Shown piece by piece: positions 17,060-58,601 of a DNA stretch of 64,000 nt. Source of the DNA: Candidatus Adlerbacteria bacterium (GTDB lineage Bacteria; Patescibacteriota; Minisyncoccia; Phycocordibacterales; SBAW01). Each line of letters starts with the position of its first letter. Position 1 is the stretch's first letter. The position numbers were made by a program, and so were the translations under genes. The notes under the pieces are model-generated. The model saw only the letters and a program-made list of their open reading frames with translations, was not told the DNA's origin and searched no databases. The stretch covers positions 94,465 to 158,464 of the forward strand of contig JBAXLB010000001.1 in NCBI GenBank assembly GCA_037135035.1. The letters run 5' to 3'.

Positions 17060-23911
<6,852 letters not shown>

Positions 23912-36329: not shown

Positions 36330-36358
36330 AAAAACAGCCTCGCTAAAGGCTGTTTTTA
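36330..36358. terminator. Bidirectional terminator hairpin.
   Basis: AAAAACAGCC-ucgcuaaa-GGCUGUUUUU. Confidence 0.6.
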
Positions 36359-36394
36359 CCTCGAAAATGAAGACTTCCTCCCACCGGGGAGATT

Positions 36395-36835: not shown

Positions 36836-36840
36836 AGTAC

Positions 36841-38689: not shown

Positions 38690-38693
38690 ATTT

Positions 38694-39263
38694 TTAGGCT
38701 TGGCGTCTCTTCCTGAAATACCATACTAGCAGTGCACATACAGACACAGCAACGGTAGCGAAGGCAACATAGTCAAAATATATACCCACTCGTTCATATG
38801 CGCTGCCAAAGAGTATGCCCAACGCTAAATACACAGCGGCCTGCACCAGTGTTACTAACAAACAAGCAAATATAAACAAAGGGTACGAAACGCGTACGAT
38901 ACCGGCCGCGATAAGTCCTGCAAAACCTATTCCTTGCGATACTTTAAATACGGCGGTCGTCTTGAAACGATTTTTTTCTATTTTGTGTTTTGCTTTTTCT
39001 ATTGTTTCTTGTTTAACGCCAAACACGCGCTCTAAAAAGCGGGTAATAGGGCCGCCGCCATACCTGCCAACTGCGTACCACGCGCTGTCGCCGACTAGGT
39101 CGCCTGCAACAACAACACAGTAGGCAATGACGGGGTTAAAAATCCCCGTTGTTGCTAACAGACCTGCGATGACGGTAATAATAGGTCCTTCCACAATGGC
39201 GAGCGGGAAGAGAATATAGTAGCCGTAGTGTTGCAATAGCAAAAGTGCCTGGTCGAGGGACAT
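38694..39263 (-). CDS. DedA/VTT-family membrane protein.
   Basis: YGYYILFPLAIVEGPIITVIAGLL and the following G-rich motif typical of DedA proteins. Confidence 0.8.
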   Translation of the reverse strand: MSLDQALLLLQHYGYYILFPLAIVEGPIITVIAGLLATTGIFNPVIAYCVVVAGDLVGDSAWYAVGRYGGGPITRFLERVFGVKQETIEKAKHKIEKNRFKTTAVFKVSQGIGFAGLIAAGIVRVSYPLFIFACLLVTLVQAAVYLALGILFGSAYERVGIYFDYVAFATVAVSVCALLVWYFRKRRQA

Positions 39264-39314
39264 GGGTACTCCAGTATATACCCCAGAACCTGCTTTTTGT
39301 GTTAAAATACCCAG

Positions 39315-39782
39315 ATGTCAGCTGCTCTTATTATTTTCTGCGCGCAATACCTTATATGGGTTATGGTCGCGGCTTTTGTAGGCTACTTCTTGTACGCGCG
39401 CAAACGTACCAAGCGCAAAATGCTCCTGTTGTCGCTTATTGCATTGCCGGCTGCCTATGCCGTAGCGAAAATTGCAGGGATTTTTTACTTTAACCCACGG
39501 CCGTTTATTTCAGATGGTGTGGTGCCACTTTTTACTCACGTAGCTAGCAACGGCTTCCCGTCCGGCCATATGCTGTTTGCCGCGGCACTTGCAACTATTG
39601 TGCTTATGTTTAACCGCCCTGTCGGAATACTGCTGTGGGTTATGGCAGTAGTTGTGGGTATAGCCCGTGTATTAGCCGGGGTACACCACTATATAGACAT
39701 CCTCGGTGCTAGTGTCATTGCATTTTGTGTGGTATTTATTGTGTATAGGTCTATACGCGGTGCAGGGTGGTACCGCGGGTAG
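39315..39782 (+). CDS. PAP2-family phosphatase (BcrC/undecaprenyl-diphosphatase-like).
   Basis: PSGH and SR...GVHHYIDILG motifs in a 4-5 TM protein. Confidence 0.75.
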   Translation: MSAALIIFCAQYLIWVMVAAFVGYFLYARKRTKRKMLLLSLIALPAAYAVAKIAGIFYFNPRPFISDGVVPLFTHVASNGFPSGHMLFAAALATIVLMFNRPVGILLWVMAVVVGIARVLAGVHHYIDILGASVIAFCVVFIVYRSIRGAGWYRG

Positions 39783-39824
39783 GGTACAATAGAAGGGTCT
39801 TATTTAGTAGCTTTATATAACGTA

Positions 39825-39977
39825 ATGGAAACTGAAATTGCATACTGCGTAAAGTGTCGCGAAAAGCGCGAGATGAAAGACGCAAAAGAAGTTGAGATGA
39901 AGGGGGGTCGCCGCGCAATGTCCGGTATGTGCACGGTCTGTGGCACAAAGATGTTTAAGATCTTAGGCAAGGCAAAG
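39825..39977 (+). CDS. Unlisted 50-aa zinc-ribbon protein (DUF5679-like): METEIAYCVKCREKREMKDAKEVEMKGGRRAMSGMCTVCGTKMFKILGKAK.
   Basis: CxxC-N22-CxxC with the YCVKC...CxVCGTKMF pattern I recall for the DUF5679 family. Below the ORF-track cutoff. Confidence 0.5.
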
Positions 39978-40013
39978 TAGTAGACTTCACATATTCGAAG
40001 CAAATAACTTCCT

Positions 40014-43168: not shown

Positions 43169-43669
43169 CTATGCTACAAAGCGGTAGCCTACACCACGTA
43201 CTGTTTCAAAACGGGGCGATGTGGGAGTGCGCTCTAGTTTTTTGCGGAGATTTTTCATGTGTACGTCGAGTACGTTGCTCCAGGTCATGGAATTAAAATC
43301 CCACACATGGCTGGAAAGTTCTTCGCGGGTAAATACCTCGCCGGGTCGGCGGAGAAAACATTCGAGCAAGGCGTATTCTTTAAGTGTGAGCGCTATCTCG
43401 GTGTCGTTTACAAACACTTTGTGCATTGCAGTGTCGATAGTAATGTCGCCGACGGTATGTACAACAGTTGGGATAGTTGCGGGGCGGCGTGCAACCGATG
43501 CAACGCGTGCAATAAGTTCTTCTGTAGAAAATGGTTTAACGACGTAGTCGTCTGCACCGGCGTTTAGTAACTCTACTTTGTACGCTGTTTCGCTCCGACC
43601 GGTGAGGATAATGATAGGGGTCGTAATTTTCTCAGCTCGTAGGCTCTTGGTTATAGCCATGCCGTCCAT
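43169..43669 (-). CDS. OmpR-family response regulator lacking the N-terminal ~55 aa of the receiver domain (no phospho-acceptor Asp); possibly degenerate.
   Basis: Winged-helix C-terminal domain (LTLKEYALLECFLRRPGEVFTREEL...RGVGYRF). The receiver starts at MDG, after the expected D. Only 44 bp separate it from the upstream SET gene, so there is no room for the missing segment. Confidence 0.6.
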   Translation of the reverse strand: MDGMAITKSLRAEKITTPIIILTGRSETAYKVELLNAGADDYVVKPFSTEELIARVASVARRPATIPTVVHTVGDITIDTAMHKVFVNDTEIALTLKEYALLECFLRRPGEVFTREELSSHVWDFNSMTWSNVLDVHMKNLRKKLERTPTSPRFETVRGVGYRFVA

Positions 43670-44589: not shown

Positions 44590-44645
44590 ATCAAGTACTA
44601 TTGGGTACGAGTTTTTCCGTTCCTTCTAACAGAGAGGTTGTTGCC

Positions 44646-44831
44646 ATGTTTGCACGTCGCCAACTGCTGGTAGCGGCGGCGCTTATGCCGGCCGCTCTCC
44701 GTGCCTCATGGGCACAAAATTACCCCGTACGCCCAATCCGCATTGTTGTGGGTTTCCCGCCCGGGGGCCCCACCGACCAGCTTGCCCGCCTCTTGAGCGA
44801 GCAGTTGCCCCGAGATATGGCACGACATTAA
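44646..44831 (+). pseudogene. N-terminal fragment (~61 aa) of a TctC/Bug-family periplasmic binding protein with a Tat-like signal; GC-rich, truncated.
   Basis: MFARRQLLVAAALMPAALRASWAQNYPVRPIRIVVGFPPGGPTDQLARLL is the characteristic start of Bug/TctC proteins. The ORF stops after 61 aa and composition shifts abruptly afterwards. Confidence 0.4.
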
Positions 44832-45051
44832 CCGTCAGTACAACATGGGGGTCAACAAATTTTCTTTGGATAGTACAAACCAACGCCACTAGTTATGGTG
44901 CTCGTACGTTCGGTACACGTTTTCTCAACCGATATGGTGCGGTACTTTCACATCAAACTATACAGGTGGGGGATAGCGTTACTATAACTGGCATGCTTAA
45001 CAATACTGCCCAAGAAACAATAATCCACGCCGATACTGTCAGGAGTTTGAA

Positions 45052-45084
45052 ATAAAAAAGCCGCCATCTCGGGGGGAGCGGCGG
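45052..45084 (-). terminator. Rho-independent terminator for the 45085..45510 gene.
   Basis: Minus-strand CCGCCGC-N13-GCGGC followed by UUUUUUAUUU. Confidence 0.5.
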
Positions 45085-45510
45085 TCACATGAGCTTCTTT
45101 TTGAAGTCGCTTTTCTGGGAGCGTTCAGTCTTTGTGTCGCTGCAGATGATGACTAATAGCCAGACTGGACCTGCAACACCGGCAGTATCTTCGTCTTCGA
45201 AGACGCCTTGCCCGTGTTCGAGTTGGAGTTTTACCTCTCTTCCGTGATTAGCAATTGCCACCTCGCAGACGTACCGAAAGACAAGACGCTCTTCTATTCC
45301 AAGCTCTTCCGCAATGTATTTTGGCCGAAAGAAATTTATACTAACGTTCTGCGCCGTTAGACCTCTTTTGTACTCTTCGGGGCTTAGCACGGTCACCGCA
45401 TCTAATTTGCCTTCAGAAAAAAGCCTGTAGGCTTTTGTTTCGAAAGCTTCCTCCCAAGAAGTGAATCTTCCTAGGTCGGCCAGAGTGTTCAGGGTCAAAG
45501 TAAAACCCAT
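45085..45510 (-). CDS. Hypothetical protein (141 aa).
   Basis: ORF with terminator. No homology recognised. Confidence 0.4.
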   Translation of the reverse strand: MGFTLTLNTLADLGRFTSWEEAFETKAYRLFSEGKLDAVTVLSPEEYKRGLTAQNVSINFFRPKYIAEELGIEERLVFRYVCEVAIANHGREVKLQLEHGQGVFEDEDTAGVAGPVWLLVIICSDTKTERSQKSDFKKKLM

Positions 45511-45669
45511 AGCAGTCTCCTCGATGTTTCCAATTACAACTCTACATCTTTATGTAACTTTGTCAGCTCCGCTGAGACCTAATTTTTAAGGAGAAACATA
45601 GACTTTTAAAAAAATTGTGGTATTATCAACTTAACGCGCTCTTCCCCAAAAACCATAAGGAGTTCTCAG

Positions 45670-46101
45670 ATGTCCTTACCCCCATCCCTTGACCTGAAGC
45701 GGATCCTGAATGTGAGAGACGCGCTCCAGACGCATCTCTTCGACGGGGGCTTGATCGATTTCTTTGTCGGTCAAAGGCAGTACCGCATCAATCCTGTCTC
45801 CTTCGAAATGAAGGGCGGTGACGTCGTATTAAAGACGACAAATCCCTTGATGCAATTGAGAGGAGGTGTGTGGAGACCGGCCCGGAATCAGAGCCTCACA
45901 CTAAAGCTTAACGATACGGCCCCCGTCATTCTCGTTCACGGTGAGCCGGATGAGTTGTTGTTGGTTCTCGTAAGTAATGAGACGGAAGAGGGACCGGTCC
46001 AAGTCGTTCTTTACCCTTTTGGCGTCGACCTACAAAACCCTAAAATACAAATATCGGGTTGGAGTAGGGGTGCTCCTCCAAATCTACACAAAAAACCATA
46101 G
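45670..46101 (+). CDS. Hypothetical protein (143 aa).
   Basis: RBS AAGGAG 8 nt upstream of ATG. No homology recognised. Confidence 0.4.
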   Translation: MSLPPSLDLKRILNVRDALQTHLFDGGLIDFFVGQRQYRINPVSFEMKGGDVVLKTTNPLMQLRGGVWRPARNQSLTLKLNDTAPVILVHGEPDELLLVLVSNETEEGPVQVVLYPFGVDLQNPKIQISGWSRGAPPNLHKKP

Positions 46102-46280
46102 TGCGAGGGGACTATGGGTGCAATATTGCAGGCGCTTGGGCGCCTGTTTTTCTTTTGCTCCTCCTGATAGAGGACGTTCCCTCGGCCATAGCCCGGACTA
46201 CGGGCGAGGCGAACCTATTGTGGGTAAAAGAAAAGGCCGCCCTGGTGTGGGAGGCCTTGAGCGGCATTACCGAAGCGCAG

Positions 46281-46550
46281 CTACTTGTCGCGACTGTAAG
46301 CTGCTCCACGAATATCGTCATCGCTCATGTTGGCGATATCGAGGTCGCCACCGAAGAAGCGGTCGAGCAGTTCCCCCGTGCCATCTGTGGGGAAGAGAGT
46401 ACCCAGACGGCCTTTCACTTCCTCGCCGCGTGCATGAGCAGCTTCGGCGGCGGCAACTCCGCCGAACTCCTGCTGCATTAGCTCCATGGATTTTGCAGCT
46501 TTTCCGCGGATGCGCTCCTGTGCTTCGCGGTCTTTATCGGACTCGGACAT
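46281..46550 (-). CDS. Hypothetical small acidic protein (89 aa).
   Basis: ORF with RBS-like AGGAGGA upstream. No homology recognised. Confidence 0.3.
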   Translation of the reverse strand: MSESDKDREAQERIRGKAAKSMELMQQEFGGVAAAEAAHARGEEVKGRLGTLFPTDGTGELLDRFFGGDLDIANMSDDDIRGAAYSRDK

Positions 46551-46808
46551 CCTATCCTCCTGTGCAGTTCAAGCCCAACTATACAAGTTTATTAAAATAT
46601 GTCAGCTCCGCATGGTGAACGACGTCAGAACTTGGAGTTTGGAGCAAATTGGGCTCATTTCGCCACTATCAAGAGATACAGCGACTTTGGAATAAATTCG
46701 CACCACAGAGGGTCGCAGCAAGGCACGTAAGACATCCATAAAGACCGGATGACTTGCTTTGGGAGCCAAAATAGCCTTTATTTTATGAAAGCAGGATATT
46801 GACAAGAA

Positions 46809-46849
46809 TTGGCAAGTTAGTTGTAAGGCTTGCCAAAACTTGACATAAT
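46809..46849 (+). promoter_or_regulatory. Candidate promoter (TTGTAA-N17-CATAAT) overlapped by an 8-bp inverted repeat TTGGCAAG-N12-CTTGCCAA. Putative operator for the HTH domain of the downstream methyltransferase.
   Basis: Sequence read directly; the -10 hexamer lies ~25 nt upstream of the ATG at 46875. Confidence 0.4.
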
Positions 46850-46874
46850 TTCCCAAAAGGTAGAAGATGCCTTT

Positions 46875-49052
46875 ATGAATGAAACACAAGACGACAGACT
46901 TTACACGTTGCAGGAGGTGGCGGACATGCTTCATGTTAGCGAGCGTACGACTTTCCGCTACATTCACGATAAGAAATTGAACGCAAAGAAAATTGGGGGT
47001 GCATGGCGTGTTACAAGTGCTGATCTCAAAGCATTTCTTGCAGGAGAAGCGCCGGAGGTGCTTCGCGCTGTTGAGAAGGACATGGTGGGCAAGCGCGATA
47101 GTTTGACGAAAGCCGACATTAAGCGCGTGTGCGACATTCTGCGCCGCGACGATGGCGTCGGGGCGAAGGATTACATCGAGCAATTCTCATGGCTCCTATT
47201 TCTCAAAGTATTCGAGGGCGTCGAAGCGCAGCTCAAGGAACTTGAAGAGGCTGAAGGGCGAAAATATAAATCAGTCATTGATGCCGAATACCAATGGTCG
47301 GCGTGGGCCAAGAAGGACTGGAAGGACAAGGATGAACTCATTCATTTCATAAATCAGAAACTCTTCCCTTACTTGCAAACGTTGCAGGGAGACCCACGCC
47401 GCGACAAGATCGGTCAGATATTCCGCGAACTGCCGGGCAACCGCATCCGCTCGCCTCATAACCTTCTTGATGTCATCGATATTCTCAACAAGATAGAGAA
47501 ACATCATTTTCAGGATACAAACCTTCTCTCGCAGGTCTATGAAGAAATCTTGCAGGCGATGGGAAGCGAAGGTGGCTGGTCGGGGGAGTTCTATTCTCCA
47601 AGACCGCTCATCCGCCTCATGGTCAAAATCGTAAATCCGATGCTCGGTGAGACAGTTCTCGATCCTTTCGTTGGGTCGGGCGGCTTCCTCGTGGAAAGCT
47701 TCAATCACATCTACGAAAACTCTGCAAAAGATGTTCGTGCATGGAAAACACTCCAAACTAAAACGCTCTACGGGCAGGAAAAGAAACCGTTGCCATTTCT
47801 AATCGGCACGATGAACCTCATTTTACATCATGTCCTCGTGCCTAATCTCGTACGCACGAACACCTTTATGGAGGATGTGCACAACACGCCCGAAAGCGAG
47901 AAAGTAAACGTGATTTTGACGAACCCTCCATTTGGTGCGGAAGAATCGAAAGCGGTGCAGAACAACTACCCGATCCAAGTTGGAGCGACCGAAGGTCTTG
48001 CGCTTCAGTATGTGATGAAGCGCCTCAAAAACGGCGGCCGGTGCGGCATCATTCTTCCGGAGGGCAACGTATTGTTTGGTGGAGGAGCCATGGCTCGCAT
48101 ACGCGAGGAGCTTCTCACAAAATTTAATGTGTCGGCAATCATTTCTCTACCGCAAGGTACTTTCTCCCAAATGGGGACTGGTATTAAGACCAACCTCATA
48201 TTCTTTGAAAAAACTGGCGGTACAAAGGAGATTTGGTATGGCGAAGTAAAGGGAAAGTTTACTAAGAAGAAAACCGTGCAAGATAGCGACTTGTATGAGG
48301 TGTTCGAGAAGTGGAAAAAGCGTGAAAATTCAGATACTTCTTGGACAGTGCCTATAGCTACTATCAAGGAGCAGGGTTATAACATATTGCCAAAGAACCC
48401 AAACACCACGAATGAAATGTTCGAGAGCCCGGATGAATTGATACAAGCTTTAGAAAATGGACAGAGCGCAGTTGAGAAAGCAATACAGTCACTTGGCTCA
48501 CTTTATAGAAAACTCTCGGTAACCTCAGCGGGACAAAGATATTCATTGACAGAACTTTTTGACCGATTGCCAGCCGGAAGGAAATATTCTAAGAAAGAGG
48601 TGCGAGATGAAGGCAAGGTGCCCGTCATTGACCAGAGCCAGAGTGATGTGTTTGGTTATCACAACCTTAAGCCGGATATTCATGCGTCAGAGGGTGAACC
48701 TGTTATTACCTTCGCTAACCACACAAGAGCTGTTAGGTATATGACCCATGATTTCTCGGTAATACAAAATGTATTTCCATTACGCGCAAAAGCCGTCATT
48801 TTACCTCGCTTCGGTTACTACTTGCTACAAGAAGTAGTTCCAAATGAGGGCTATAAGGGTCACTGGCCTCTGCTCGAGAAAATGAGCTTTTCCATTCCTG
48901 ATTTAAAGAGTCAGGCAGAGATTGTTAAAATCGCCGATGCCATATGGGAACATATCTCTGAACTGCAAAAGCAAGTTGGTAAACAGCATTCTGATTTGAT
49001 GCTGTTTCGGAGTTCATTCTTGCTATCAATATTTCAAGCTGAGGATAAATAG
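46875..49052 (+). CDS. hsdM: Type I R-M methyltransferase fusion: N-terminal excisionase-type HTH, HsdM N6-adenine MTase, and a C-terminal single HsdS target-recognition domain.
   Basis: HTH YTLQEVADMLHVSERTTFRYIHDKKLNAKKIGGAWRV. MTase motif I DPFVGSGGFL and motif IV NPPFG. C-terminal ~250 aa matches the HsdS TRD pattern ending in the conserved PLLEKMSFSIPDLKSQAEIV region. The listed ORF starts at a TTG at 46830; the ATG at 46875 is preferred. Confidence 0.8.
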   Translation: MNETQDDRLYTLQEVADMLHVSERTTFRYIHDKKLNAKKIGGAWRVTSADLKAFLAGEAPEVLRAVEKDMVGKRDSLTKADIKRVCDILRRDDGVGAKDYIEQFSWLLFLKVFEGVEAQLKELEEAEGRKYKSVIDAEYQWSAWAKKDWKDKDELIHFINQKLFPYLQTLQGDPRRDKIGQIFRELPGNRIRSPHNLLDVIDILNKIEKHHFQDTNLLSQVYEEILQAMGSEGGWSGEFYSPRPLIRLMVKIVNPMLGETVLDPFVGSGGFLVESFNHIYENSAKDVRAWKTLQTKTLYGQEKKPLPFLIGTMNLILHHVLVPNLVRTNTFMEDVHNTPESEKVNVILTNPPFGAEESKAVQNNYPIQVGATEGLALQYVMKRLKNGGRCGIILPEGNVLFGGGAMARIREELLTKFNVSAIISLPQGTFSQMGTGIKTNLIFFEKTGGTKEIWYGEVKGKFTKKKTVQDSDLYEVFEKWKKRENSDTSWTVPIATIKEQGYNILPKNPNTTNEMFESPDELIQALENGQSAVEKAIQSLGSLYRKLSVTSAGQRYSLTELFDRLPAGRKYSKKEVRDEGKVPVIDQSQSDVFGYHNLKPDIHASEGEPVITFANHTRAVRYMTHDFSVIQNVFPLRAKAVILPRFGYYLLQEVVPNEGYKGHWPLLEKMSFSIPDLKSQAEIVKIADAIWEHISELQKQVGKQHSDLMLFRSSFLLSIFQAEDK

Positions 49053-49053
49053 T

Positions 49054-51507
49054 ATGGCTTACTCAGAAGATGACACAAGGGTTAAACTTATAGACCCAAA
49101 AATACACGAAGCAGGATGGAAGGAGGAATACATCCTTCGCAACTATGCTATTGCCGACGATCGCTTTTACGTTGAGGGTGAGGAATATAAACGACTTCCG
49201 ACTGCTAAATTTGCTGATTATGTGCTGACTTACAACAATCTCACCATCGCTGTGCTCGAAGCAAAGGCGGAAGATGAAGAGCCTCTTAAGCATATGAGTC
49301 AGGCGCAGGATTACGCAAAGCGCCTCGATGTGCCGTTCGCGTACATCTCAAATGGCAAGACAATCTACCTGCACGATCGGCGCACAAAGAAAACGGAGAA
49401 GGTCTCGTCGTATCTTTCGCCCGAGGAGATGCATAAAGCATATCTGGAGTGGAAGGGGCTCGCGAATCAGAATCTCTCGGCGCTCGAATATCCACTCTAC
49501 ATAAGTGGAACCAAACGCCCCCGTGCCTATCAGGAAACCGCTATTAAGGATGTGGTGGAAAATATCACCAAGGGTAAGAAGGCGACGCTCCTCACGATGG
49601 CAACCGGCACCGGTAAGACTTTCACGGCCTTTCAAATCGTATGGAAACTCGTCAAATCGAAATCCATGCACCGCGTCCTCTTCTTGAGTGATCGCGTCAT
49701 CCTTCGCGATGACTCATACAGTCGAGACTTCGAACCATTCGGTGAGACGCGCCACAAGATAGAAGGAGGTAACTTCAATAAGAATCGCGATATCTACTTC
49801 GCTACATATCAAACCCTTTTCACCAACGACCTCTACAAGGACATCCCATCGGACTTCTTTGATCTCATCGTTATAGACGAGTGTCACCGCTCCCGCTATG
49901 GCGACTGGGGTGCGGTTTTGGATCACTTCGGTTCTGCCGCTCAACTTGGCATGACCGCTACTCCGAAGCGCGAAGACAATATTGACGTGTATGACTATTT
50001 TGGAGAGCCTGTTTTTGAATACTCGCTCGGACAGGCAATAGACGACGGGTACCTCGTGCCATACAAAATCTACAAAGTTACAACCAATCTTTACCGCAAG
50101 GGTTTGAATGTCGCTGCAGCAGAAGAAGTCATTTACGATGATGAAATTGAGCCCGCGGACGTGAAGGACTTTTACGAGCCGTCCGAGTACGAGCGTGCGG
50201 TTACCATTCCGGAACAGATAGACCTTCTCTCAAGCAAGGTCATTCAGGTGCTCAACGACACTAACCAGTATGGAAAAACAATCGTCTTTTGCGTCGACAT
50301 GGCACACGCTCAAGCAGTCAAGGACAAACTCAACGAAATCAAAGGGAGGGAGGATTACGCTACCCGCATCGTGGCGGAGGATAAAGATGACCTAACTGTT
50401 TTCCGCGATAAAGAGCGGCCGATGCCGGTTGTTGCGACAACGGTAGATTTGCTCTCGACAGGCGTGGATATTCCACACATCCAAAATATCGTGTTTATGC
50501 GCCCGATTGCATCGCGCGTGCTCTTCAAGCAAATCATGGGCCGTGGTTCCCGTCTCTCCGAAGGCAAAGGGTTCTTTAGGATCATTGACTTCACCAATGC
50601 GACACGGCTCATTGATGATTGGGATATTCCCCCAGAGCCGCCTAAGCCGCCCTCTCCGCCAGAGGAACCGATGCCACCGATGGATAAACTGCTCATGGGT
50701 ATTGTCGTAGACAACACGACCGAAGAGCCGGTTGCAAGCGCAATCGTCAAAGCAAAACTTGGGCGCTGGGAGAAGGTCGGAAAGACAGATGAACATGGCT
50801 TCTTCAAGTTGTTTGGCTTGCCGTCCAACGACAAGGTAAACGTGCATATTGAACATGCTGACTACAAGGTATTGAACAAAACCTTAAAACCCCACACGTC
50901 CGACGAAGAGATGCCGTACGAGTTCCGCCTGAAGGCGCTTCGCTCCACGCCGAAGAAAATAACCGTTAAAGGTATCGAGGTTACGATCGACGAGGAAGTT
51001 GAGATTGAGTTCGACGGCATAAAACTCTCAAAAGCAGAATATCGTAGATTCTCCGGGGAGAAGATAGTGGAAATGGTGCATACCACGGACGAACTACGTG
51101 CAGTGTGGCTCGACCCTGAGAAGCGTGAGCTATTCATGGCGGACTTGGAGTCAAAGCGCGTCAATATTCCACTCATTAAATCCATCGAGAACTTAGAAGA
51201 CAGTGACGCATTTGACGTGATAGCTCATATTGCCTTCAACGCGCCGCTTCTCACACGCGAAGACCGCGTCAAGCAGTTTATGCGTGCCAATTCGCAACTC
51301 ATTGACCAGTACGGAACGGAAATTGGCGAAGCCGTTCGCAACATCATGGAAAAATACAAGACCGGCGGCGAAGAGAATATATCGTCACAAGCATTTCTTT
51401 TGCCGAACATGAACGCAAAGAAAGAAGCAATACAGGCTCAATACCCAGGGGGGCTTTTTGGCTTTGTCCGCGGATTAAAAGAGAAGATCTACGAGTTTAG
51501 TAAATAG
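49054..51507 (+). CDS. hsdR: Type I restriction enzyme R subunit (HsdR-like), 817 aa, with an inserted Pro-rich linker plus Ig-like (CarboxypepD_reg-like) domain and an EcoEI_R_C-like C-terminus.
   Basis: N-terminal PD-(D/E)xK nuclease region (DYVL...EAKAED), SF2 helicase motifs TMATGTGKT and VIDECHRS. PPEPPKPPSPPEEPMPP linker then GIVVDNTTEEPVASAIVKAKLG...TDEHGFF beta-sandwich. C-terminal DVIAHIAFNAPLLTREDRVKQ. Confidence 0.85.
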   Translation: MAYSEDDTRVKLIDPKIHEAGWKEEYILRNYAIADDRFYVEGEEYKRLPTAKFADYVLTYNNLTIAVLEAKAEDEEPLKHMSQAQDYAKRLDVPFAYISNGKTIYLHDRRTKKTEKVSSYLSPEEMHKAYLEWKGLANQNLSALEYPLYISGTKRPRAYQETAIKDVVENITKGKKATLLTMATGTGKTFTAFQIVWKLVKSKSMHRVLFLSDRVILRDDSYSRDFEPFGETRHKIEGGNFNKNRDIYFATYQTLFTNDLYKDIPSDFFDLIVIDECHRSRYGDWGAVLDHFGSAAQLGMTATPKREDNIDVYDYFGEPVFEYSLGQAIDDGYLVPYKIYKVTTNLYRKGLNVAAAEEVIYDDEIEPADVKDFYEPSEYERAVTIPEQIDLLSSKVIQVLNDTNQYGKTIVFCVDMAHAQAVKDKLNEIKGREDYATRIVAEDKDDLTVFRDKERPMPVVATTVDLLSTGVDIPHIQNIVFMRPIASRVLFKQIMGRGSRLSEGKGFFRIIDFTNATRLIDDWDIPPEPPKPPSPPEEPMPPMDKLLMGIVVDNTTEEPVASAIVKAKLGRWEKVGKTDEHGFFKLFGLPSNDKVNVHIEHADYKVLNKTLKPHTSDEEMPYEFRLKALRSTPKKITVKGIEVTIDEEVEIEFDGIKLSKAEYRRFSGEKIVEMVHTTDELRAVWLDPEKRELFMADLESKRVNIPLIKSIENLEDSDAFDVIAHIAFNAPLLTREDRVKQFMRANSQLIDQYGTEIGEAVRNIMEKYKTGGEENISSQAFLLPNMNAKKEAIQAQYPGGLFGFVRGLKEKIYEFSK

Positions 51508-51532
51508 AACTTATCAGTAACCTCAACAAATT

Positions 51533-52810
51533 ATGCCAGACTCACACAAAACCAGCGCCGTGATGATTGACTGTCCCAAGTGCGGCGAGACTTACGAGAT
51601 AACAGAAGCGCTCCGTGAGTCGATTGCTGAAAAAGCGAAGGCAGAAGTACTTGCTGATGTTTCTAAGCGAGAGAAAGCTCTTGCGTCGCAAGAGGCAGTC
51701 ATTGCAGGTGAAAAGGAACAGATGGAAAAGCTCAAAGCAACGGAGGCAGAACGGGTCAAGCGAGAAGTAACTAAGCGTGTAGATGAAGAGCGCACAAAGG
51801 TTGTTGCAGATGCAAAAAAGCAGGCACAAGAGGAACTTCGTGTTGAGCTGAAGGATAAGGAGGAGCAGATCAAGGAAAAAGACGCAGCACTCAAAATTGC
51901 TCAAGAAGCAGAGCTCTCTGCCAGAAAGAGAGAACGCGAAGCGGACGAGAGAATCAAGACCGCAGACCTCGAAGTTGAAAAAAAGCTTGCATCTAAACAG
52001 GGTGAGATGGAAGTCGAGATAAGCAAACGATACAACGAAGAGTTTGCTGCAAAAGAACGCCAGAATCAAAAGAAAATAAGCGACCTTGTTCAGCAACTGG
52101 AGGAGGCCAAGATAAAAGCTGAACAAGGATCTCAGCAACTTCAAGGTGAGGTTCAGGAACTTGATCTCGAGCAAGCACTACGTGAAGCGTTTCCGCAGGA
52201 TGTAATCGAGCCTGTCGGCAAGGGCATAAGGGGTGCTGATATTAGACAACGAGTGCAGTCCAGTTCGGGGCGCCTTGCTGGCGTAATTCTGTGGGAGTCA
52301 AAGCAAACAAAAACATGGTCAGACGGCTGGCTCGGCAAACTCAAAGATGACCTTCGCGCCGAGGCAGCAAACATTCCGGTGATCGTGAGTGTTGCAATGC
52401 CTGAGGAAGCGAAAGCAGGATTCGGACAAAAAGAAGGCGTATGGGTGTGCAAGCCGGGCATGGCCATCGGTGTCGCTCATGCTTTCAGACGCCAGCTGCT
52501 TGACGTCGCTTTGGCAAACGCGCAGGCGGAGAGTCGCGGCACACTTGCTGACTCTCTCTATGACTACGTCATAAGCCATGAATTCAGGCAACAGATCGAA
52601 TCGATGGTGGAGGTCTATCGAGAAATGAAAGAGCAGATTGGACGGGAAAGAATTGCTTATGAAAAGTCATGGAAAATACGCGATGCTCAGGTCGACAGAA
52701 TGTTCGTCGGCACGGCACGTGTCGTGGGTTCAATACAAGGTAAGCTCGGGAGCACTGCATTCGGTCCTGTTAAAGGATTGGAATTGCTTGAGGGTCCAGA
52801 AACTGAATAG
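51533..52810 (+). CDS. DUF2130-like protein: N-terminal CPKCG zinc-ribbon half, ~200-aa Lys/Glu coiled-coil, conserved C-terminal globular domain.
   Basis: Domain layout read from the translation. Starts 26 bp after hsdR, and its stop is 4 bp from the next gene. Confidence 0.55.
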   Translation: MPDSHKTSAVMIDCPKCGETYEITEALRESIAEKAKAEVLADVSKREKALASQEAVIAGEKEQMEKLKATEAERVKREVTKRVDEERTKVVADAKKQAQEELRVELKDKEEQIKEKDAALKIAQEAELSARKREREADERIKTADLEVEKKLASKQGEMEVEISKRYNEEFAAKERQNQKKISDLVQQLEEAKIKAEQGSQQLQGEVQELDLEQALREAFPQDVIEPVGKGIRGADIRQRVQSSSGRLAGVILWESKQTKTWSDGWLGKLKDDLRAEAANIPVIVSVAMPEEAKAGFGQKEGVWVCKPGMAIGVAHAFRRQLLDVALANAQAESRGTLADSLYDYVISHEFRQQIESMVEVYREMKEQIGRERIAYEKSWKIRDAQVDRMFVGTARVVGSIQGKLGSTAFGPVKGLELLEGPETE

Positions 52811-52813
52811 TCT

Positions 52814-54082
52814 ATGGCAAAGGCTATTTTCTATTCTTGGCAATCTGATACTCCAAATAAGGTTGGCCGTTCTTTCATAAAAGATGTACTTGAAGAGGTG
52901 TGCGCGGACCTTGCCACGGATGCATCTTTGGATGAAGCTCTTCGCGATGTGGAAGTCGATAGCGACACACAAGGGATTGCAGGGCAACCTCCCATTGCTG
53001 AAACGATTTTCAAAAAAATAGATGCCGCCTCGGTCTTTGTGGCTGACCTGACCTTTACTGGAACACGTATGGACGGACGACCCGCGCCAAATCCAAATGT
53101 CCTAATTGAATATGGATGGGCTCTGAAGTCTCTTACATATTCACGTGTGATCTGCGTTATGAATACAGCCTACGGTGAGCCAAATAATGACACTTTACCG
53201 TTTGATCTCGCACATCTTCGATGGCCTATAAGATACACGTTGTTTGAAGAGTCTACTCCCCAAGAGAGAGCCGACGAAAAAAGAAAGCTGTTTAATGTGC
53301 TCAAGGAAGCGATTAGGCTGAGCATAGCGGCTGTGCCTTCGCCAACTCCGGACCCGCCGCCGGTCTTTCCAGCTGTAGTTGCAAAGGACGGACCAGCTCG
53401 ATTTCGTAGCAAAGGTGAAGCGATAGGCTTCGAAGACGGTCTCCATTACGGAGAATCTACAAAGGAAATATTTCTAACCCCAGGGCCTGCGATGTGGCTT
53501 CGGCTGATGCCGTCAACGAAACCAGAGGGAGAATGGACTCCACGGCAATTGAAAGAATTGTCCTCTCCCAGATCATTACTCATGCCACTAATTCATCCGG
53601 CAGGAGGCTATTCATATCTCAGAGCTTCTGATGGAGAAGGCATGTACCGTGCATCTGATAGTCAAACAGAAGGTTCAATAATCAACATTGCTGGGGTTAC
53701 ATTTGCTTTCAAAACTGGAGAAGTATGGGGCATCGAGACAGCGTTACTTAACTACAGTGAAAACCGTCTCTATATGACGGAAGTAGAACAGAAATTCGTC
53801 GAGGGTATCCTTACTTACTCACAATTTCTAAATGAGCTTGGCATCAACCCTCCCTATCATTGGAAGGCCGGTTTAACTGGCGTGAGAGGTCGGCAAATCG
53901 GATATGCCCCGCGGCCGGGCCATAACTGGATCCGCGATGGAGGCCCGCCCTGCGCCACTGACTTGATCGAAGCCGAGGGAGAGATACTGCCTGATCAACC
54001 GGCAACTACTGCATTACTACCATTCTTCAAAAAGGTATTCGAGGAGTGCGGAATCGAACGTCCAGACTATCTGCCACAATAA
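52814..54082 (+). CDS. TIR-like-domain protein (N-terminal ~170 aa) with a ~250-aa C-terminal domain of unknown function.
   Basis: N-terminal KAIFYSWQSDTPN...AASVFVADLTF...NVLIEYGWAL follows the (V/I)F(I/Y)S(Y/W)xxxD - hydrophobic strand - conserved-Glu pattern of TIR/DUF1863 folds. The C-terminal half is unrecognised. Confidence 0.45.
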   Translation: MAKAIFYSWQSDTPNKVGRSFIKDVLEEVCADLATDASLDEALRDVEVDSDTQGIAGQPPIAETIFKKIDAASVFVADLTFTGTRMDGRPAPNPNVLIEYGWALKSLTYSRVICVMNTAYGEPNNDTLPFDLAHLRWPIRYTLFEESTPQERADEKRKLFNVLKEAIRLSIAAVPSPTPDPPPVFPAVVAKDGPARFRSKGEAIGFEDGLHYGESTKEIFLTPGPAMWLRLMPSTKPEGEWTPRQLKELSSPRSLLMPLIHPAGGYSYLRASDGEGMYRASDSQTEGSIINIAGVTFAFKTGEVWGIETALLNYSENRLYMTEVEQKFVEGILTYSQFLNELGINPPYHWKAGLTGVRGRQIGYAPRPGHNWIRDGGPPCATDLIEAEGEILPDQPATTALLPFFKKVFEECGIERPDYLPQ

Positions 54083-54338
54083 AAACAGAATCTAATGCTG
54101 GATATCGTTTCTGTGTGGGGTAGAATGTGAGCGTAGCTCTTTAAGTTACAACAATTGAATAAAAAGGACCTAACCCGCAGTCACTGCGGCAAGGTCGACA
54201 AGTCGTATAAGGCACAAAGAACCCATCATGGGGTCGCCTTATACGCCATATCGGGAAACTGGTATGAGTGGCTTCGGCCACTACCCGTGGTGGGCTTTTT
54301 GTGACCATCACGGGATTAGCAACTAAGGCTAATTGCCA

Positions 54339-54485
54339 TGAGTGAAAGTCTCGAGGTTGGTTTAGGGGCAGGAGTTATGGGGCTCGGTATCTGGTCATTT
54401 TCAGTCGGCTACATCCTTGGTGGTATATTCTTCACCTTGTGTGGAATGCTCTTAATGTGGTTCGCAATATATGCCCGAAAATAAG
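54339..54485 (+). CDS. Unlisted 48-aa two-TM peptide. Its stop overlaps the start of the next gene (ATGCCCGAAAATAA).
   Basis: MSESLEVGLGAGVMGLGIWSFSVGYILGGIFFTLCGMLLMWFAIYARK. Preceded by a structured leader. Confidence 0.3.
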
Positions 54486-54839
54486 AGAAAGCTAAGACTT
54501 GCAGGGGTTGTAACCCTTATCGCCGGTGTCGGCGCGCTTGGAGCCCTTTTGAGCGCTTACGGGGCTCCACGGAACACAACAGCAGTTGCAGACAGCCTAC
54601 GTTGCCCGAGTCAGTATTCAACGGACGCGGAAGCAGCTGCAGCATTCAAGACATTCAGCGACGATTATTACGCGAACCACCCAAATGCCACTATGGGAGA
54701 AATGCTCCAAGCGCGAATCGATTTCTACACTACGCATCATTGCACTGAGGAGCTTCAAAGATATAAGCAAGCCGCAGCCGGCGAAGCAGATAAGGCAACA
54801 ATGGACACGATAGATGCAGCAATACAGGGAGCGCAGTGA
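54471..54839 (+). CDS. Small secreted/membrane-anchored protein (122 aa).
   Basis: N-terminal signal/TM (LAGVVTLIAGVGALGALLSAYG), translationally coupled to the upstream peptide. Confidence 0.4.
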   Translation: MPENKRKLRLAGVVTLIAGVGALGALLSAYGAPRNTTAVADSLRCPSQYSTDAEAAAAFKTFSDDYYANHPNATMGEMLQARIDFYTTHHCTEELQRYKQAAAGEADKATMDTIDAAIQGAQ

Positions 54840-54897
54840 AACTTGATTAAATCAAAAAACGCGTCTTTTGTCTCAAAATAAATCCTTTATCTACAAG

Positions 54898-55437
54898 CTA
54901 AATCATCTGTGCTCTCTTTGCGAGATCTGCGGGCAAACGCTCCAATATCCATGATGACTGAGTGCGAAGGAAGAACAACTTCCATATTCTTGAGCAACTA
55001 AAAAAATACCTCGTCCTAACTTGCCACGGCCTTTCATCTTCGAACTCGTCGTGCCTGATCATGATTACTATCTTTTCATAACCGGGTTGAAACATACTGT
55101 CCATAAAGCAGCGACGCAGAGGTACGCGACCGCGAGTCTCTAAATCTTTAGCGAGAGCCTCAATAACTTTGTCGAGGGCACCCGAAGCGGCCCATTCGTG
55201 AAGTCGTCGATGGCATGACTGAAAGGGTGGGTATCCTTCGCGCGTCAGTCTCCTCAATGTGACGCCCTTCTCCAATAGTAGAAGTACTCCATCAAGTAAC
55301 TGACGGTCAGACTGCCTTTTGCGGCCTCTGGTTTCCAAACGTTGAGGGCGTGATACGAGAGGTGCAACTAATTGCCATTGCTTGTCCGATAAATGGAAGG
55401 TCACAAATAAATTGTAGCGCCAGTCATTAAAAGACAC
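54898..55437 (-). mobile_element. IS5-family (IS427/IS1182-like) transposase remnant: OrfA-like N-terminal HTH (DUF4096) only. The DDE catalytic domain is absent.
   Basis: LSDKQWQLVAPLV...RGRKRQSDRQLLDGVL...RRLHEWAASGALDKVIEAL matches the conserved start of IS5/IS4-family OrfA. No DDE-bearing continuation in any frame. Confidence 0.55.
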
Positions 55438-55965
55438 ATTTCCATAAAGCGTTATCCACAGGTGTTGAAACTACATTCGTGCCCCCTCATCGACAAAAAC
55501 ACTCCCATCGTCTCGGTGAGAGGGGGCACGTTTGTACATATGCCATGCTGTGGACAAACTTTCTCAAACCAATGCTCTGATAACATAAGTATAGTTCTTT
55601 CTTCACTGCAAACCGATATAAATCGGAACCAAAGAAAATGCCGTTGCAAGATGCGAATAGGTGTTTGGCTCACCAGCTCAACACGCTGCTCTACTGAGTA
55701 ATCAGGGAGAGCCGCTTCTGAACAGACCTTTTACGGCATAGGGTTTGTGGTTCTGATTGGCGCCCAGACGGACTGGGTAGCTGAGGGAGAAGCCTCCAGA
55801 TTGTGCACGACTTATTGTCGCGCTCATTCTGGAGGCTTTTTGTTTGCACGAATAAGAGTTGGCTACAAAGACCCGCTTCTTGCGGGAATGGTCGAGTAGC
55901 CAACTCCCATTCTCACAGGTGGCGGATCTTTGTATTCGTCTCCATAAACAAAAAGTCTCCGCATC

Positions 55966-56277
55966 ATGCGGATTAAACAGCAATCATTGCAAGAACTAAA
56001 AAAAATAATAACGCGCGACTATGGCGCGGTTCTTAGCGATGAGGAATCCGCTGAACTTGCGCACGACCTATTACGTTTGACTCGGGTTGCCATGGCTGTG
56101 GTTGCTCGAGGTATTTCTAACAATCGGAAAGCACGGGGTAGTCAGCGAGTCCCCGAGACAACAAAACCGGCTCAAAATCGAGGTGCTCTGCTACCGCCCG
56201 AGATATTGGGCCAAAGCGGCAAACCATCCCGGGCATTGCCCGGGCGTGAGGAGGGCATCTCGAAACTGAAGTCATAA
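55966..56277 (+). CDS. Hypothetical small protein (103 aa).
   Basis: ORF only. Confidence 0.2.
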   Translation: MRIKQQSLQELKKIITRDYGAVLSDEESAELAHDLLRLTRVAMAVVARGISNNRKARGSQRVPETTKPAQNRGALLPPEILGQSGKPSRALPGREEGISKLKS

Positions 56278-56489
56278 CGGCGTGTTCGCCTCAAGGGTCC
56301 CGCCTCCATGGGCATTAACCGACCTTGAGAAAACGGTGTATCAAATCCGTCACGCGCGTTTGGTGGCTTTGTTTTCTGTACAGAGTATCTGTGGCAGTTT
56401 GATATCGATAGGTATCACGCTATGGAGGGGTATGGACTTGTTTACCACTAACGGTAGCTTGTTAGTTGTTATCAATCTAAGCAAAAAAC

Positions 56490-58235
56490 ATGAAAGCGAA
56501 TATTACATACGCTTCGTATGCACGCAAATCCTCCGAAGCAGAAGATAAACAAGCTCTCTCAATCGAGTCGCAAGCAGATGCGTTAAAGAGACTTGCGAAG
56601 AATAAAGAGGTTGATCTAAAAGAAGAAAATATTCTTGAAGAGTCGCATTCAGCAAAACAAGCGTTTGCAAGACCCGTATTCGAGCGATTGTTAAAAGAAA
56701 TCGAGTCCAGAAAGGTGCAAGGAATACTCGCGTGGCACCCAAATAGACTTTCTCGTAACGCTATCGATGCTGCACGTCTCATCCAGCTGATGGATGAAGA
56801 AAAGTTGATAGAAATACTTACACCAAGTCAAACGTTTAAGAACACCCCACAAGATAAGTTCTTCTTCCAGATGATGACGAGTCAGGCAAAAATGGAAAAT
56901 GATACCAAGGGCATCGAGGTGCGCAGGGGGTTACGTAAAAAGAATCAAATGGGTTTTCCAGGAGGGGTGGCAAAACCCGGCTACGAAAATGACTACGGCC
57001 TCAAGGGCCAGCGAAAGATAATAGTGGATCTGGAACGGTTCGAACTTGTAAAACAGATGTTTAAACTCTTTTTGTCAGGTAAATACTCTGTCCGGAAGCT
57101 GACCAAATATGCCGAGGAAGTAATGGGCTTGCGCTCAATACAGCGAACAAAAGAAGGTGGGAAGCCCCTCGCATTGTCGCGCGTTTACGCCATTCTACAA
57201 GACCCATTCTATGCTGGATTCTTTTACGGTAAAGATGAAGACCGAGAGACTGTGCGCTACGAGGTAAACGAGGCTCTGCCACGCATGATTACCGAGGAAG
57301 AGTATTGGGAAATACAGGCCATGCTGGGGCGCAAAGGGGTGCCACGGCCGACCATCAACAAGCGTATATTTCCTTACACCGGTAGAACCAAATGCGGCAC
57401 GTGTGGCGGTAGCGTTACGGCGGAGCACAAACACCAGCTCATCTGCTCGGAATGTAAGTACAAATTTGCTTATCAAAACAAGACGGTGTGCCCAACATGT
57501 GAGACAAAAATAAGCGATATGGATAACGCAGTCTACTTGCACTACATCTACTATCACTGCACCAAGAAGCGAAGTGCGGATTGTCCAGAAGGAAGTGTAC
57601 AAGAGTTTAAAATAGACGACTCCATGGCGGAGTACGCTGAAAATAACTTCACCATATCAAAGTCATTGAGCGACTGGTGCATCCAGCATCTGGATGAACT
57701 GGCAAAAAATGACAAACAGAATGAGTATGAGCGCAAAGGAACCTGGGAGCGTGAACTTGCCCAAAAGGAGAAAGAGAGCGAGGAGCTGGTGCGCATGCGT
57801 ATCAAAGGGCTTATTACCGACGATGCTGAGTTCTTTAAGCATAAGGCAACCCTTGAGGCCGACAAGAAACGAATTAAACAAGTACTCACCGATATGGGAG
57901 GTACAGATATGACAACTCTGGAGAAGGCCAAAGAGGCCTTCAGTCTCGTCGTAGGGGTAGCCGAGGTTTTCCGCAAAGGCACCTTTGATGAGAAACAAGA
58001 GGCTCTTTCAGCTCTTGGCTCGAACCTAACGCTGAAGGACAAAAAACTCAACGTTATCAACAAAGAAATCTTCTCGGTGATTACAAAAGGCCTTCTTGAG
58101 GCTAAGGCAGTAAACAAGGCGTTCGAACCTAAAAACTGTGAGGCAGATAAAGACGAAACCGAGGTCTTTACCTCGGTTCGTCCAACTATGCTCCGCGACC
58201 AGGACTCGAACCTGGAACCAACTCCTTACACGTGA
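56490..58235 (+). CDS. Large serine recombinase (resolvase/invertase N-terminal catalytic domain, recombinase domain, zinc ribbon, coiled-coil); integrase of a putative integrated element.
   Basis: Catalytic-serine region YARKSSEAEDKQALSIESQ, zinc ribbon CGTCGG...C...C, long coiled-coil C-terminus. The last ~45 nt overlap the tRNA-Asn 3' exon on the opposite strand. Confidence 0.85.
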   Translation: MKANITYASYARKSSEAEDKQALSIESQADALKRLAKNKEVDLKEENILEESHSAKQAFARPVFERLLKEIESRKVQGILAWHPNRLSRNAIDAARLIQLMDEEKLIEILTPSQTFKNTPQDKFFFQMMTSQAKMENDTKGIEVRRGLRKKNQMGFPGGVAKPGYENDYGLKGQRKIIVDLERFELVKQMFKLFLSGKYSVRKLTKYAEEVMGLRSIQRTKEGGKPLALSRVYAILQDPFYAGFFYGKDEDRETVRYEVNEALPRMITEEEYWEIQAMLGRKGVPRPTINKRIFPYTGRTKCGTCGGSVTAEHKHQLICSECKYKFAYQNKTVCPTCETKISDMDNAVYLHYIYYHCTKKRSADCPEGSVQEFKIDDSMAEYAENNFTISKSLSDWCIQHLDELAKNDKQNEYERKGTWERELAQKEKESEELVRMRIKGLITDDAEFFKHKATLEADKKRIKQVLTDMGGTDMTTLEKAKEAFSLVVGVAEVFRKGTFDEKQEALSALGSNLTLKDKKLNVINKEIFSVITKGLLEAKAVNKAFEPKNCEADKDETEVFTSVRPTMLRDQDSNLEPTPYT

Positions 58236-58484
58236 CCCCGAACTTACGTAAGGGCGTGGACTATATCATCACCCGTTCTGGGTGCGAGGCGCTTCGTCCC
58301 GAAATTCGGGACTACTTCCGTTTGGAATAGTCTCTGAACCTTTCCCCAGAGTGGGGACTTGGCTGCTGATTGCCCTTCTCAAATGAGAATAGGGTTTCCA
58401 GACAATTCACCTCGTTTGCAACCCACATTCCTGTGGGAGGCTGCCTATCGACAGGGAGCTGCTCTACCATTGAGCTATCGCGGA
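58191..58484 (-). tRNA. tRNA-Asn(GUU) interrupted by a 222-nt group I intron in the anticodon loop. Exon 1 is 58451-58484, intron 58229-58450, exon 2 58191-58228.
   Basis: Exons assemble to UCCGCGA-UA-GCUCAAUGGUAGAGC-A-GCUCC-CUGU|UAA-GGAGU-UGGUU-CCAGGUUCGAGUCCUGG-UCGCGGA-G. This has a perfect 7-bp acceptor stem, G73 discriminator and a CUGUUAA loop, and closely resembles B. subtilis tRNA-Asn. Splicing after U33 would instead give Thr(UGU), judged less likely. Confidence 0.65.
58229..58450 (-). other. Group I self-splicing intron (tRNA anticodon-loop type).
   Basis: Conserved core elements on the minus strand: P-like GAAUUGUCUGGAAAC, Q-like AAUCAGCAGCC, R GUUCAGAGACUA (plus 58328-58339), S GAUAUAGUCC (plus 58258-58267). 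The P1 exon sequence CUGU pairs with intronic GCAG with a U.G at the splice site. The intron ends in G. Confidence 0.75.
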
Positions 58485-58601
58485 ATATACTATCCTACAA
58501 AACCAAATCGGAATTGAAGAATACCGCTCTAATATAGCAAAAAATGCTTAATTGGAAAGGCCTCACAGAGTCTTTAGGTGGGCAGCTGATATACTGGGGG
58601 A

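Follow-up and report, generated by a model that had tools for sequence, protein, structure and literature searches.

Positions 46605-58196 of a 64,000-nucleotide stretch of the Candidatus Adlerbacteria contig JBAXLB010000001.1 (the whole stretch is called the window below, and all coordinates are counted from its first letter) very probably form an 11.6-kb integrative element, which belongs to a Parcubacteria-wide family and was placed at the extreme 3′ end of a tRNA-Asn(GUU) gene by its own large serine recombinase (LSR). A preliminary description of the window had proposed an accessory island beside this tRNA gene and had warned that relatives sharing the whole block would speak against it. 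The island itself was borne out, as the relatives L007 and L008 (handles with L denote contigs and loci other than the window) carry the tRNA without the recombinase. Its limits, given as 44590-58484, had to be redrawn, because a core repeat and a conserved left-arm motif put the element at 46605-58196.

Both ends of the element carry the 7-bp direct repeat GCTCCGC (46605-46611 and 58190-58196), whose reverse complement consists of the final bases of the tRNA-Asn acceptor stem, the discriminator and one further base. On the element side of the left core copy lies an element arm, P′, with the conserved motif ATGGTnAACnACGTnAGAAC, which is roughly an inverted repeat of the right arm P. The resemblance of P (..GTTCGTCCAACTAT) to the reverse complement of P′ (..GTCGTTCACCAT) fits the expectation for the two halves of a serine-integrase attP. 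The attP predicted on this basis reads ..CCAACTAT-GCTCCGC-ATGGTGAAC.. and the attB junction predicted from the ends of the element in the window reads ...TTATTAAAATATGTCA-GCTCCGC-GACCAGGACTCGAACC..., with GCTCCGC as the sole stretch that attP and attB share. A search for a second copy of the 22-nt tRNA 3′ segment, as suggested in the preliminary description, found the segment to be unique in the window with up to 3 mismatches allowed; for an LSR with a 7-bp common core this search was bound to fail, and the repeat that is present is the core. A generic repeat search over 40-60 kb likewise gave no obvious boundary pair, and one of its repeat families, D4, was later recognised as the host arm and core repeat described below.

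The right junction was defined by relatives obtained in a scan of genome contigs with the flanking fmt gene, which yielded eight of them. The closest, the Adlerbacteria metagenome-assembled genome L007 (protein identity to the window 99% for HPF and 84% for fmt), follows the window at 96-98% nucleotide identity through HPF and the whole intron-bearing tRNA and stops exactly at window position 58190. When the tRNA 3′ ends were aligned, ...CGCGGAGCA was seen at the occupied sites; there it leads into a conserved element end made up of nAGTTGGACGAAC, a hairpin and TTTCGTCTTTATCTGCCTCA, which is common to the window, L002, L004 and L005; the recombinase-free L007 and L008 run into unrelated DNA at this point. 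At the left junction, three elements that are independent of each other show GCTCCGC followed by the conserved P′ motif, namely those of the window (at 46605), L002 (at 137) and L004 (at 3205). The same core and motif stand at the left ends of L025 and L066, the LSRs of which are 33-36% identical and which are both located at tRNA-Asn, and the P′ motif is also present in the contigs L015-L017 and L021. Core and motif together have a single occurrence in the window and none in 100 shuffles. This test is partly circular, since the copy in the window had contributed to the pattern; compared with a consensus from L004 and L015 alone, the window copy has one mismatch. The resulting element sizes are 11.6 kb in the window, 10.9 kb in L002, 8.5 kb in L004, about 7.4 kb in L025 and about 10.3 kb in L066. 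That an assembly chimera joined unrelated contigs at the tRNA would be conceivable for a metagenome-assembled genome, in which tRNAs and repeats are common mis-join points. We give this hardly any credence, as a separately assembled 36-kb Logan contig (L001) matches attL, the element and attR without a difference and the architecture recurs in many unrelated samples.

The DNA to the left of the element, 44590-46604, decides whether the full block of 44590-58484 could instead be a single 13.9-kb acquisition that begins just after the DUF1003 gene. The open reading frames (ORFs) in 44601-46618 are orphans without a family, 44590-46604 is the native flank in no relative, and some event took place to the left of 46605, since a 36-nt direct repeat with 81% identity links 45537-45572 to 46576-46611, 1039 nt apart, both copies ending in GTCA followed by GCTCCGC. 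On the other side stand the conserved core and P′ at 46605, the same motif with which the elements of L002, L004, L025 and L066 start, and a tetranucleotide deviation that rises only from about 46 kb. No recombinase or other element remnant was detected in 44590-46604 by blastx, tblastx and local alignment, the scores of which stayed within the range of shuffles, and neither element remnants nor recognisable genes were seen between the two repeat copies (45573-46604). No ORF in 44601-47183 had a Pfam match, so that the truncated TctC/Bug gene fragment of the preliminary description found no support. We consider a single 13.9-kb acquisition quite improbable. The copy at 45537-45572 may be the scar of an older integration, and 44590-46604, which has no demonstrable link to the element, is at most older accreted DNA.

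The LSR showed the domain order of its class, with Pfam matches to Resolvase (PF00239, 7.1e-24, residues 8-155) and Recombinase (PF07508, 9.5e-8) and a weak DZR_2 match at residues 301-340 for the zinc ribbon. In an alignment of 34 family members R12, S14 and eight cysteines were invariant, and all of them are intact in the enzyme of the window. Searches against structures in the PDB returned SPbeta SprA/YokA (1e-7) and the TP901-1 integrase (4e-4), a remote similarity to solved LSRs. At the level of sequence, the enzyme thus has every feature of a large serine integrase that was tested for. Its homologs number in the thousands; nearly all of the closest 120 are about 570-580 residues long, and the named ones among them all come from the Parcubacteria group.

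As the preliminary description had stated, the LSR gene ends within the tRNA-Asn gene on the opposite strand. The final 45 nt of the LSR gene, 15 codons counting the stop, overlap exon 2 together with 7 nt of the intron, and the stop codon is a TGA at 58233-58235. In the window, L002, L003, L004 and L005/6 alike, the 3′ end of the LSR gene is crossed by a tRNA-Asn(GUU) on the other strand. In most relatives the stop codon is the TAG of the T-stem (stem CCTAC/GTAGG); the T-stem of the window (CCAGG/CCTGG) contains no stop, and the LSR ORF therefore runs on to the TGA in the intron. Homologs are conserved up to '...FASVRPTLLR' and then split into a few tail types. Among the 99 homologs with a recognisable C-terminal motif, 64 end within 1-3 residues, 25 run on as '...DSNLEP...' or '...DSNPRP...', which corresponds to a tRNA T-arm translated in reverse complement, six have the tail '..LLRMLNDVRT..' and four have other tails; tRNA-derived sequence makes up the C-terminus in 89 of them. 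These comparisons place the predicted attP of the family within the C-terminal codons of the LSR, the right arm P being the 3′ end of its gene. A crossover in the core would leave the tRNA sequence unchanged and fuse the LSR ORF to tRNA sequence, so that, with attP inside the final codons, the host tRNA would supply the stop codon. The view of this locus as a classic integrase-tRNA configuration holds in that the LSR adjoins the tRNA, but not in that the enzyme is a serine integrase with a 7-bp core, the long tRNA repeat is missing and attP lies inside the LSR gene.

Joining the two ends of the window element predicts an LSR ORF reading '...VRPTMLR-MVNDVRTW...', which is the third tail type of the homologs. 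The contigs L015, L016 and L017, which encode proteins with this tail, contain P-core-P′ junctions, e.g. ...gttcgtccaacttt GCTCCGC ATGCTGAACGACGTTAGAAC..., and no tRNA. Such junctions could belong to excised circles or to neighbours in a tandem array. What we claim from them is that whole elements appear to undergo site-specific recombination; we do not claim episomes.

The conserved element end next to the tRNA also contains a 13-bp bulged hairpin, which lies 8 nt past the tRNA, inside the codons for '...ETEVFTSVR...'. It was the top terminator-like call of the region (10 pairs), with a fold of −26.4 kcal/mol on the tRNA strand (z=-3.8). Over 13 elements 82% of the cells were paired; the figure was 73% for shuffles and 34-44% for slid controls. 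Changes on both sides are seen for 7 of the 13 pairs. Pairing is kept despite amino-acid changes, for example from TE..TS to SG..AA in L015. Since integration displaces the native downstream DNA of the tRNA by 11.6 kb, the hairpin with its U-run probably serves as a terminator for the tRNA transcript that is supplied by the element.

Comparison of the elements separates a conserved core module, consisting of the LOOT RNA, a small ORF and the LSR, from exchangeable cargo. L002 and L004 share the HPF/fmt/def flank of the window and carry a type II restriction-modification (R-M) system and a 1342-aa STAND-like NTPase; the element of L005 adjoins rpoD/dnaG and carries a type I R-M system different from that of the window. 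The small ORF gave tblastn matches in L002-L005 with 12 invariant positions in the alignment; a homology search for its family returned the query alone, and no Pfam or PHROG match was obtained. It may act as an accessory or directionality factor. A gene of about 240 codons with a winged-helix-like C-terminus was also considered as a part of the module and was discarded, because it was present only in L002, L003 and L016. In the window (Table 1), the HsdM/S fusion, HsdR, the DUF2130 protein and the DUF4096 fragment of an IS4/5-family transposase agree with the gene content first described, whereas the TIR-like domain stayed below threshold. The cargo formed by the type I R-M genes, the DUF2130 protein and the TIR-like protein is probably an anti-phage defence; the latter two, tightly paired downstream of the R-M genes and without a PADLOC match, may represent a defence pair not yet described. 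A prophage or phage satellite integrating by means of a serine integrase would account for the match of the LSR to phrog_95 'integrase' (5.8e-61) and for the clade members on IMG/VR contigs. It is nevertheless very improbable: no capsid, terminase, tail, replication or lysis gene was found among the ORFs of the element, its 11.6 kb are taken up by R-M genes and unassigned cargo, and the IMG/VR relatives share only 28-37% identity.

Table 1. Features of the integrative element, its attachment sites and its target in the window
Feature	Positions	Strand	Remarks
Diverged second copy of host arm and GCTCCGC core	45537-45572	+	Outside the element, 1039 nt left of the real left junction
attL	46576-46631	+	Host-side arm 46576-46604; core GCTCCGC 46605-46611; element left arm P′ ATGGTGAACGACGTCAGAAC 46612-46631
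HsdM/S fusion, type I R-M methyltransferase with specificity domain	46830-49052	+	N-terminal HTH_17; Pfam N6_Mtase 6e-55, HsdM_N, Methylase_S; PADLOC MTase_I 1.7e-129, Specificity_I 8.5e-18
HsdR, type I restriction R subunit	49054-51507	+	Pfam ResIII 1.1e-39, EcoEI_R_C, HSDR_N; PADLOC REase_I 1.3e-135
DUF2130 protein	51533-52810	+	Long coiled-coil N-terminus; Pfam DUF2130 3e-51; no PADLOC or PHROG match
422-aa protein with weak TIR-like N-terminus	52814-54082	+	CAP12-PCTIR_TIR E=0.0043, 17.5 bits (cut-off 24.7); no PADLOC match
LOOT RNA (RF03000)	54159-54293	+	Rfam and own covariance model
Orphan 122-aa ORF	54471-54839	+	Predicted signal/transmembrane N-terminus; no significant family
IS4/IS5-family transposase fragment	54898-55437	-	N-terminal DUF4096 only, Pfam 4.7e-17; no DDE domain
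Small conserved ORF	55966-56277	+	Directly upstream of the LSR in every element examined; conserved core of about 50 aa
LSR (serine integrase)	56490-58235	+	581 aa; conserved coding to about 58196; codons from 58190 are tRNA/intron sequence including the stop
attR	58150-58220	+	Right arm P (...GGTTCGTCCAACTAT, to 58189); core 58190-58196; then tRNA acceptor/T-arm as host arm B′
Hairpin followed by U-rich run	58156-58179	-	Directly downstream of the tRNA-Asn, within the last ~20 codons of the LSR; probable intrinsic terminator
tRNA-Asn(GUU), integration target	58191-58484	-	Exon 1 58484-58451; intron 58450-58229; exon 2 58228-58191

From genome to genome the left arms on the host side are entirely different, and this, taken with the tandem arrays, suggests that the recombinase reads mainly the tRNA half-site; new elements could then insert next to resident ones and the site would grow by accretion. 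Accretion is seen in L021 and is hinted at in the window by the second core copy at 45566. In L021 (1-15022) a tandem array at one tRNA consists of a recombinase 3′ end, a core, element a, a decayed tRNA-like fragment, element b and the intact tRNA. The LSRs of elements a and b are 45% and 25% identical, respectively; the array holds two LOOT copies and a 28-nt repeat of core and P′ at 50-77 and 494-521.

Several observations weigh against the proposed integrative element. A two-sided empty site was not found, since no relative examined has the left flank of the window, neither among those from the fmt scan nor among the contexts of DUF1003 homologs (L139-L141), which are unrelated. The empty-site comparison called for in the preliminary description, which corresponds to the absence test of Islander, was accordingly exact on the right side, against L007 and L008, and found the left flank common to no relative. 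The core/P′ motif and the analogy with the other elements are the basis of the left boundary. Composition fits the revised boundaries with a weak signal: GC is 0.478 compared with 0.493, and the tetranucleotide z is 1.7-2.2 over 46-55 kb, so that the discontinuities first reported are weak; values of about 1.5-1.9 were reached at 18000-23000 and 36000-40000, where further atypical segments may exist. No terminal overlap indicating a circular form was present in the P-core-P′ contigs L015-L017, the exact junction pattern was not found in IMG/VR, and L021 showed that tandem arrays can yield such junctions. The element could be decaying, as it has an IS fragment inside and is without the winged-helix gene of some relatives. 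The covariation of the hairpin is moderate, and the hairpin could be a DNA-level binding site of the recombinase instead of a terminator. Finally, the LSRs of the window, L002 and L004 are 68-69% identical, much like the flanking housekeeping genes fmt, def and HPF (52-71%); this would fit a long residence rather than a recent transfer.

This last observation, made at one and the same chromosomal site, would also follow if the LOOT RNA, the small ORF and the LSR were a resident and immobile platform, inherited vertically at tRNA-Asn, the cargo of which turns over by tandem insertion and deletion. The wholly different cargo, the tandem array of L021 and the lack of circles in the searches above fit such a platform. 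It is unlikely all the same, because the whole module is absent from the closest relative L007 and from L008, the same family adjoins rpoD/dnaG in L005, the P-core-P′ junctions need recombination of complete elements, and the LSR is intact with all invariant residues.

The LOOT motif (Rfam RF03000) comes from the motif survey of Weinberg et al. 2017 (PMC5737381), and no statement on its function or genomic context was found in the searchable literature. In the window, the Rfam model matched 54167-54282 with 79 bits (gathering score 46.4), and our own covariance model, built from five copies, gave 131.9 bits. Strong support for the consensus fold, which the window copy fits, came from covariation over 22 copies: 95.4% of the cells were paired, compared with 66.4% in shuffles and 30-41% in slid controls, and 34 of the 40 pairs showed compensatory changes; these counts lean towards the fold, as the alignment was fitted to the model. 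LOOT was present in all eight loci whose LSR is 40% identical or more and whose upstream sequence extends over 4 kb or more, in the P-core-P′ contig L016 and in distant clade members, including four IMG/VR contigs. Copies were located at 7734-7864 in L002, 8364-8503 in L003, 8726-8860 in L004, 7321-7456 in L005 and 1317-1447 in L016. The covariance model did not find LOOT in the recombinase-free relatives. A pattern scan of IMG/VR that started from LOOT revealed three new genuine loci, two of which (L133 and L135) hold LSRs of the clade, one with a tRNA-Arg at the LSR end; the third locus is only 2.7 kb long. As far as we have checked, the constant linkage of LOOT to this LSR family is undescribed.

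The orientation of LOOT relative to the LSR varies among elements. LOOT appears from its flanking signals, a promoter-like site at 54099-54126 and a terminator-like site at 54278-54293, to be a small transcription unit of its own; promoter-like sites near LOOT are no commoner than in shuffles and weigh little. Its invariant internal loop CCUAA/(C/U)AUGG together with a GAAA loop resembles the pair of 11-nt receptor and tetraloop; a compact tertiary fold would be expected from this. A role as a guide in the manner of a bridge RNA was considered and dismissed, since the longest duplexes of LOOT with the att sites of the window, L002 and L004 were 8-10 nt, equal to the shuffle means of 8-10 nt. 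The window system thus differs from the bridge-RNA systems of IS110 both in the class of its recombinase and in an RNA without complementarity to att beyond that of shuffles.

The target tRNA-Asn is interrupted in the anticodon loop by a 222-nt intron, which is a group I intron in a bacterial tRNA and not of the archaeal type. Rfam RF00028 (group I intron) matched 58237-58532 on the minus strand with 79.2 bits, and the bases at the splice sites, with the 5′ exon ending in U58451 and the intron in G58229, fit this class. The exon boundaries were confirmed by the intronless tRNA-Asn of L008, which matches the window at 58487-58451 and then contiguously at 58228-58185. ARAGORN recognised the joined exons as tRNA-Asn(gtt) with a canonical fold and called no tRNA in the unspliced window; intron-bearing tRNA-Asn genes would therefore stay unannotated. 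The intron is patchy in Adlerbacteria/Paceibacteria, the tRNA-Asn(GUU) being intron-bearing in L002 (11099-11340), L005 (11759-11990) and L007 (13403-13677) and intronless in L003, L004, L008 and L009. An ORF for an HNH-like protein of 114 aa lies at 13001-13345 on the minus strand of L007, in an extra segment of about 425 nt directly upstream of the intron-bearing tRNA-Asn, and is absent from the window.

Two observations concern other parts of the window. The ORF of an OmpR-type response regulator at 43169-43669 on the minus strand matches the Pfam profile of its receiver domain only from profile position 55 onwards, so that the front half of the domain is lacking. The neighbouring SET-domain gene leaves no space for this half, and the ORF probably represents a pseudogene or a truncated variant. 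A two-piece (permuted) tmRNA at 8306-8629 on the minus strand matched the alpha-proteobacterial-type model with 111 bits in this genome of the candidate phyla radiation (CPR).

The association with tRNAs extends to a wider clade of recombinases in metagenomic and viral loci (L024-L102), whose LSRs are about 30-36% identical and whose gene ends abut or overlap the 3′ end of a tRNA on the opposite strand. Of the 48 loci in which the C-terminus is complete, 29 have a tRNA that either overlaps the end of the gene by 21-39 nt or is found no more than 300 nt away from it; as tRNAs with introns escape ARAGORN, this number is too low. The preliminary description had left room for a recombinase from a clade unrelated to tRNA integration; the clade turned out to be systematically tRNA-associated. 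For the 38 fetched loci with such a tRNA, the targets were Asn (19), Trp (4), Asp (3), Gln, Tyr, Leu and Ser (2 each) and His, Arg, Ala and Met (1 each), which suggests that subclades of the recombinase are specialised for different tRNAs. We put forward, as a tentative idea that we would not yet call probable, that LOOT is a functional component of an undescribed, CPR-wide family of tRNA-targeting serine integrases, and that the wider clade is a toolkit with an integrase per tRNA and with attP in the C-terminal codons. LOOT might then act in integrase expression, in the control of directionality or in the maintenance of an excised form. If this holds, the tail of the integrase protein reports the integration state, and an LSR clade directed to tRNA 3′ ends with attP in the ORF would extend the known target logic of large serine integrases, enzymes in heavy use for genome engineering.

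The family is apparently widespread and undescribed, and nothing on tRNA-Asn islands in CPR bacteria was found in the searchable literature. For CPR/Parcubacteria, with their tiny genomes, small number of recognised mobile elements and near lack of genetic tools, it offers a defined pair of attP and attB at a universally present gene, tRNA-Asn, and it shows the shuttling and stacking of defence systems at one hotspot. The orphan LOOT RNA at the same time gains a concrete and testable genomic partner.

With the LSRs of phages and mobile elements such as phiC31, Bxb1, TP901-1, A118 and SPbeta (SprA) the enzyme of the window shares its size, the catalytic-serine resolvase, recombinase and Cys-rich zinc ribbon domains, a short common att core and a quasi-palindromic attP. 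The characterised LSRs of this kind target protein-coding genes or intergenic DNA; they are not known to use tRNAs, nor to have attP within the integrase ORF. The family of the window differs from them by an attP predicted in the last codons of the integrase, by a target at the tRNA 3′ end and by the conserved LOOT RNA. Attachment sites within the coding sequence of an integrase, where integration alters or splits the product, are known from the myxophage Mx8 and the fusellovirus SSV1. Both enzymes are tyrosine recombinases; the SSV1 gene is split by integration and the Mx8 integrase has its C-terminus changed, which makes Mx8 the closer analogy to the LSR of the window.

The tRNA islands found by Islander have an integrase gene beside the tRNA 3′ end, variable cargo, patchy presence and an intact tRNA in common with the window element. 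They use tyrosine integrases and are usually flanked by a displaced tRNA fragment of tens of bases (PMC4383910), whereas the only recombinase of the window element is a serine enzyme and its flanking repeat is just 7 bp. The tycheposons of Prochlorococcus are cargo elements at specific tRNAs of streamlined genomes, in which newer elements push older ones away from the tRNA, so that islands grow by accretion; their integrase subgroups are tRNA-specific, and 27 of 937 use large serine recombinases (bioRxiv 10.1101/2020.12.28.424599). Most tycheposons have tyrosine recombinases and partial tRNA repeats and often primase/helicase replication genes, none of which was seen in the window element, and neither a LOOT RNA nor an attP spanning the integrase ORF has been described for them. 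Among these systems the window element most resembles the tycheposon model of accretion at tRNAs, to which it would add three features that go beyond the descriptions we found, namely a predicted attP inside the integrase ORF, a putative terminator embedded in coding sequence and the constant linkage to LOOT.

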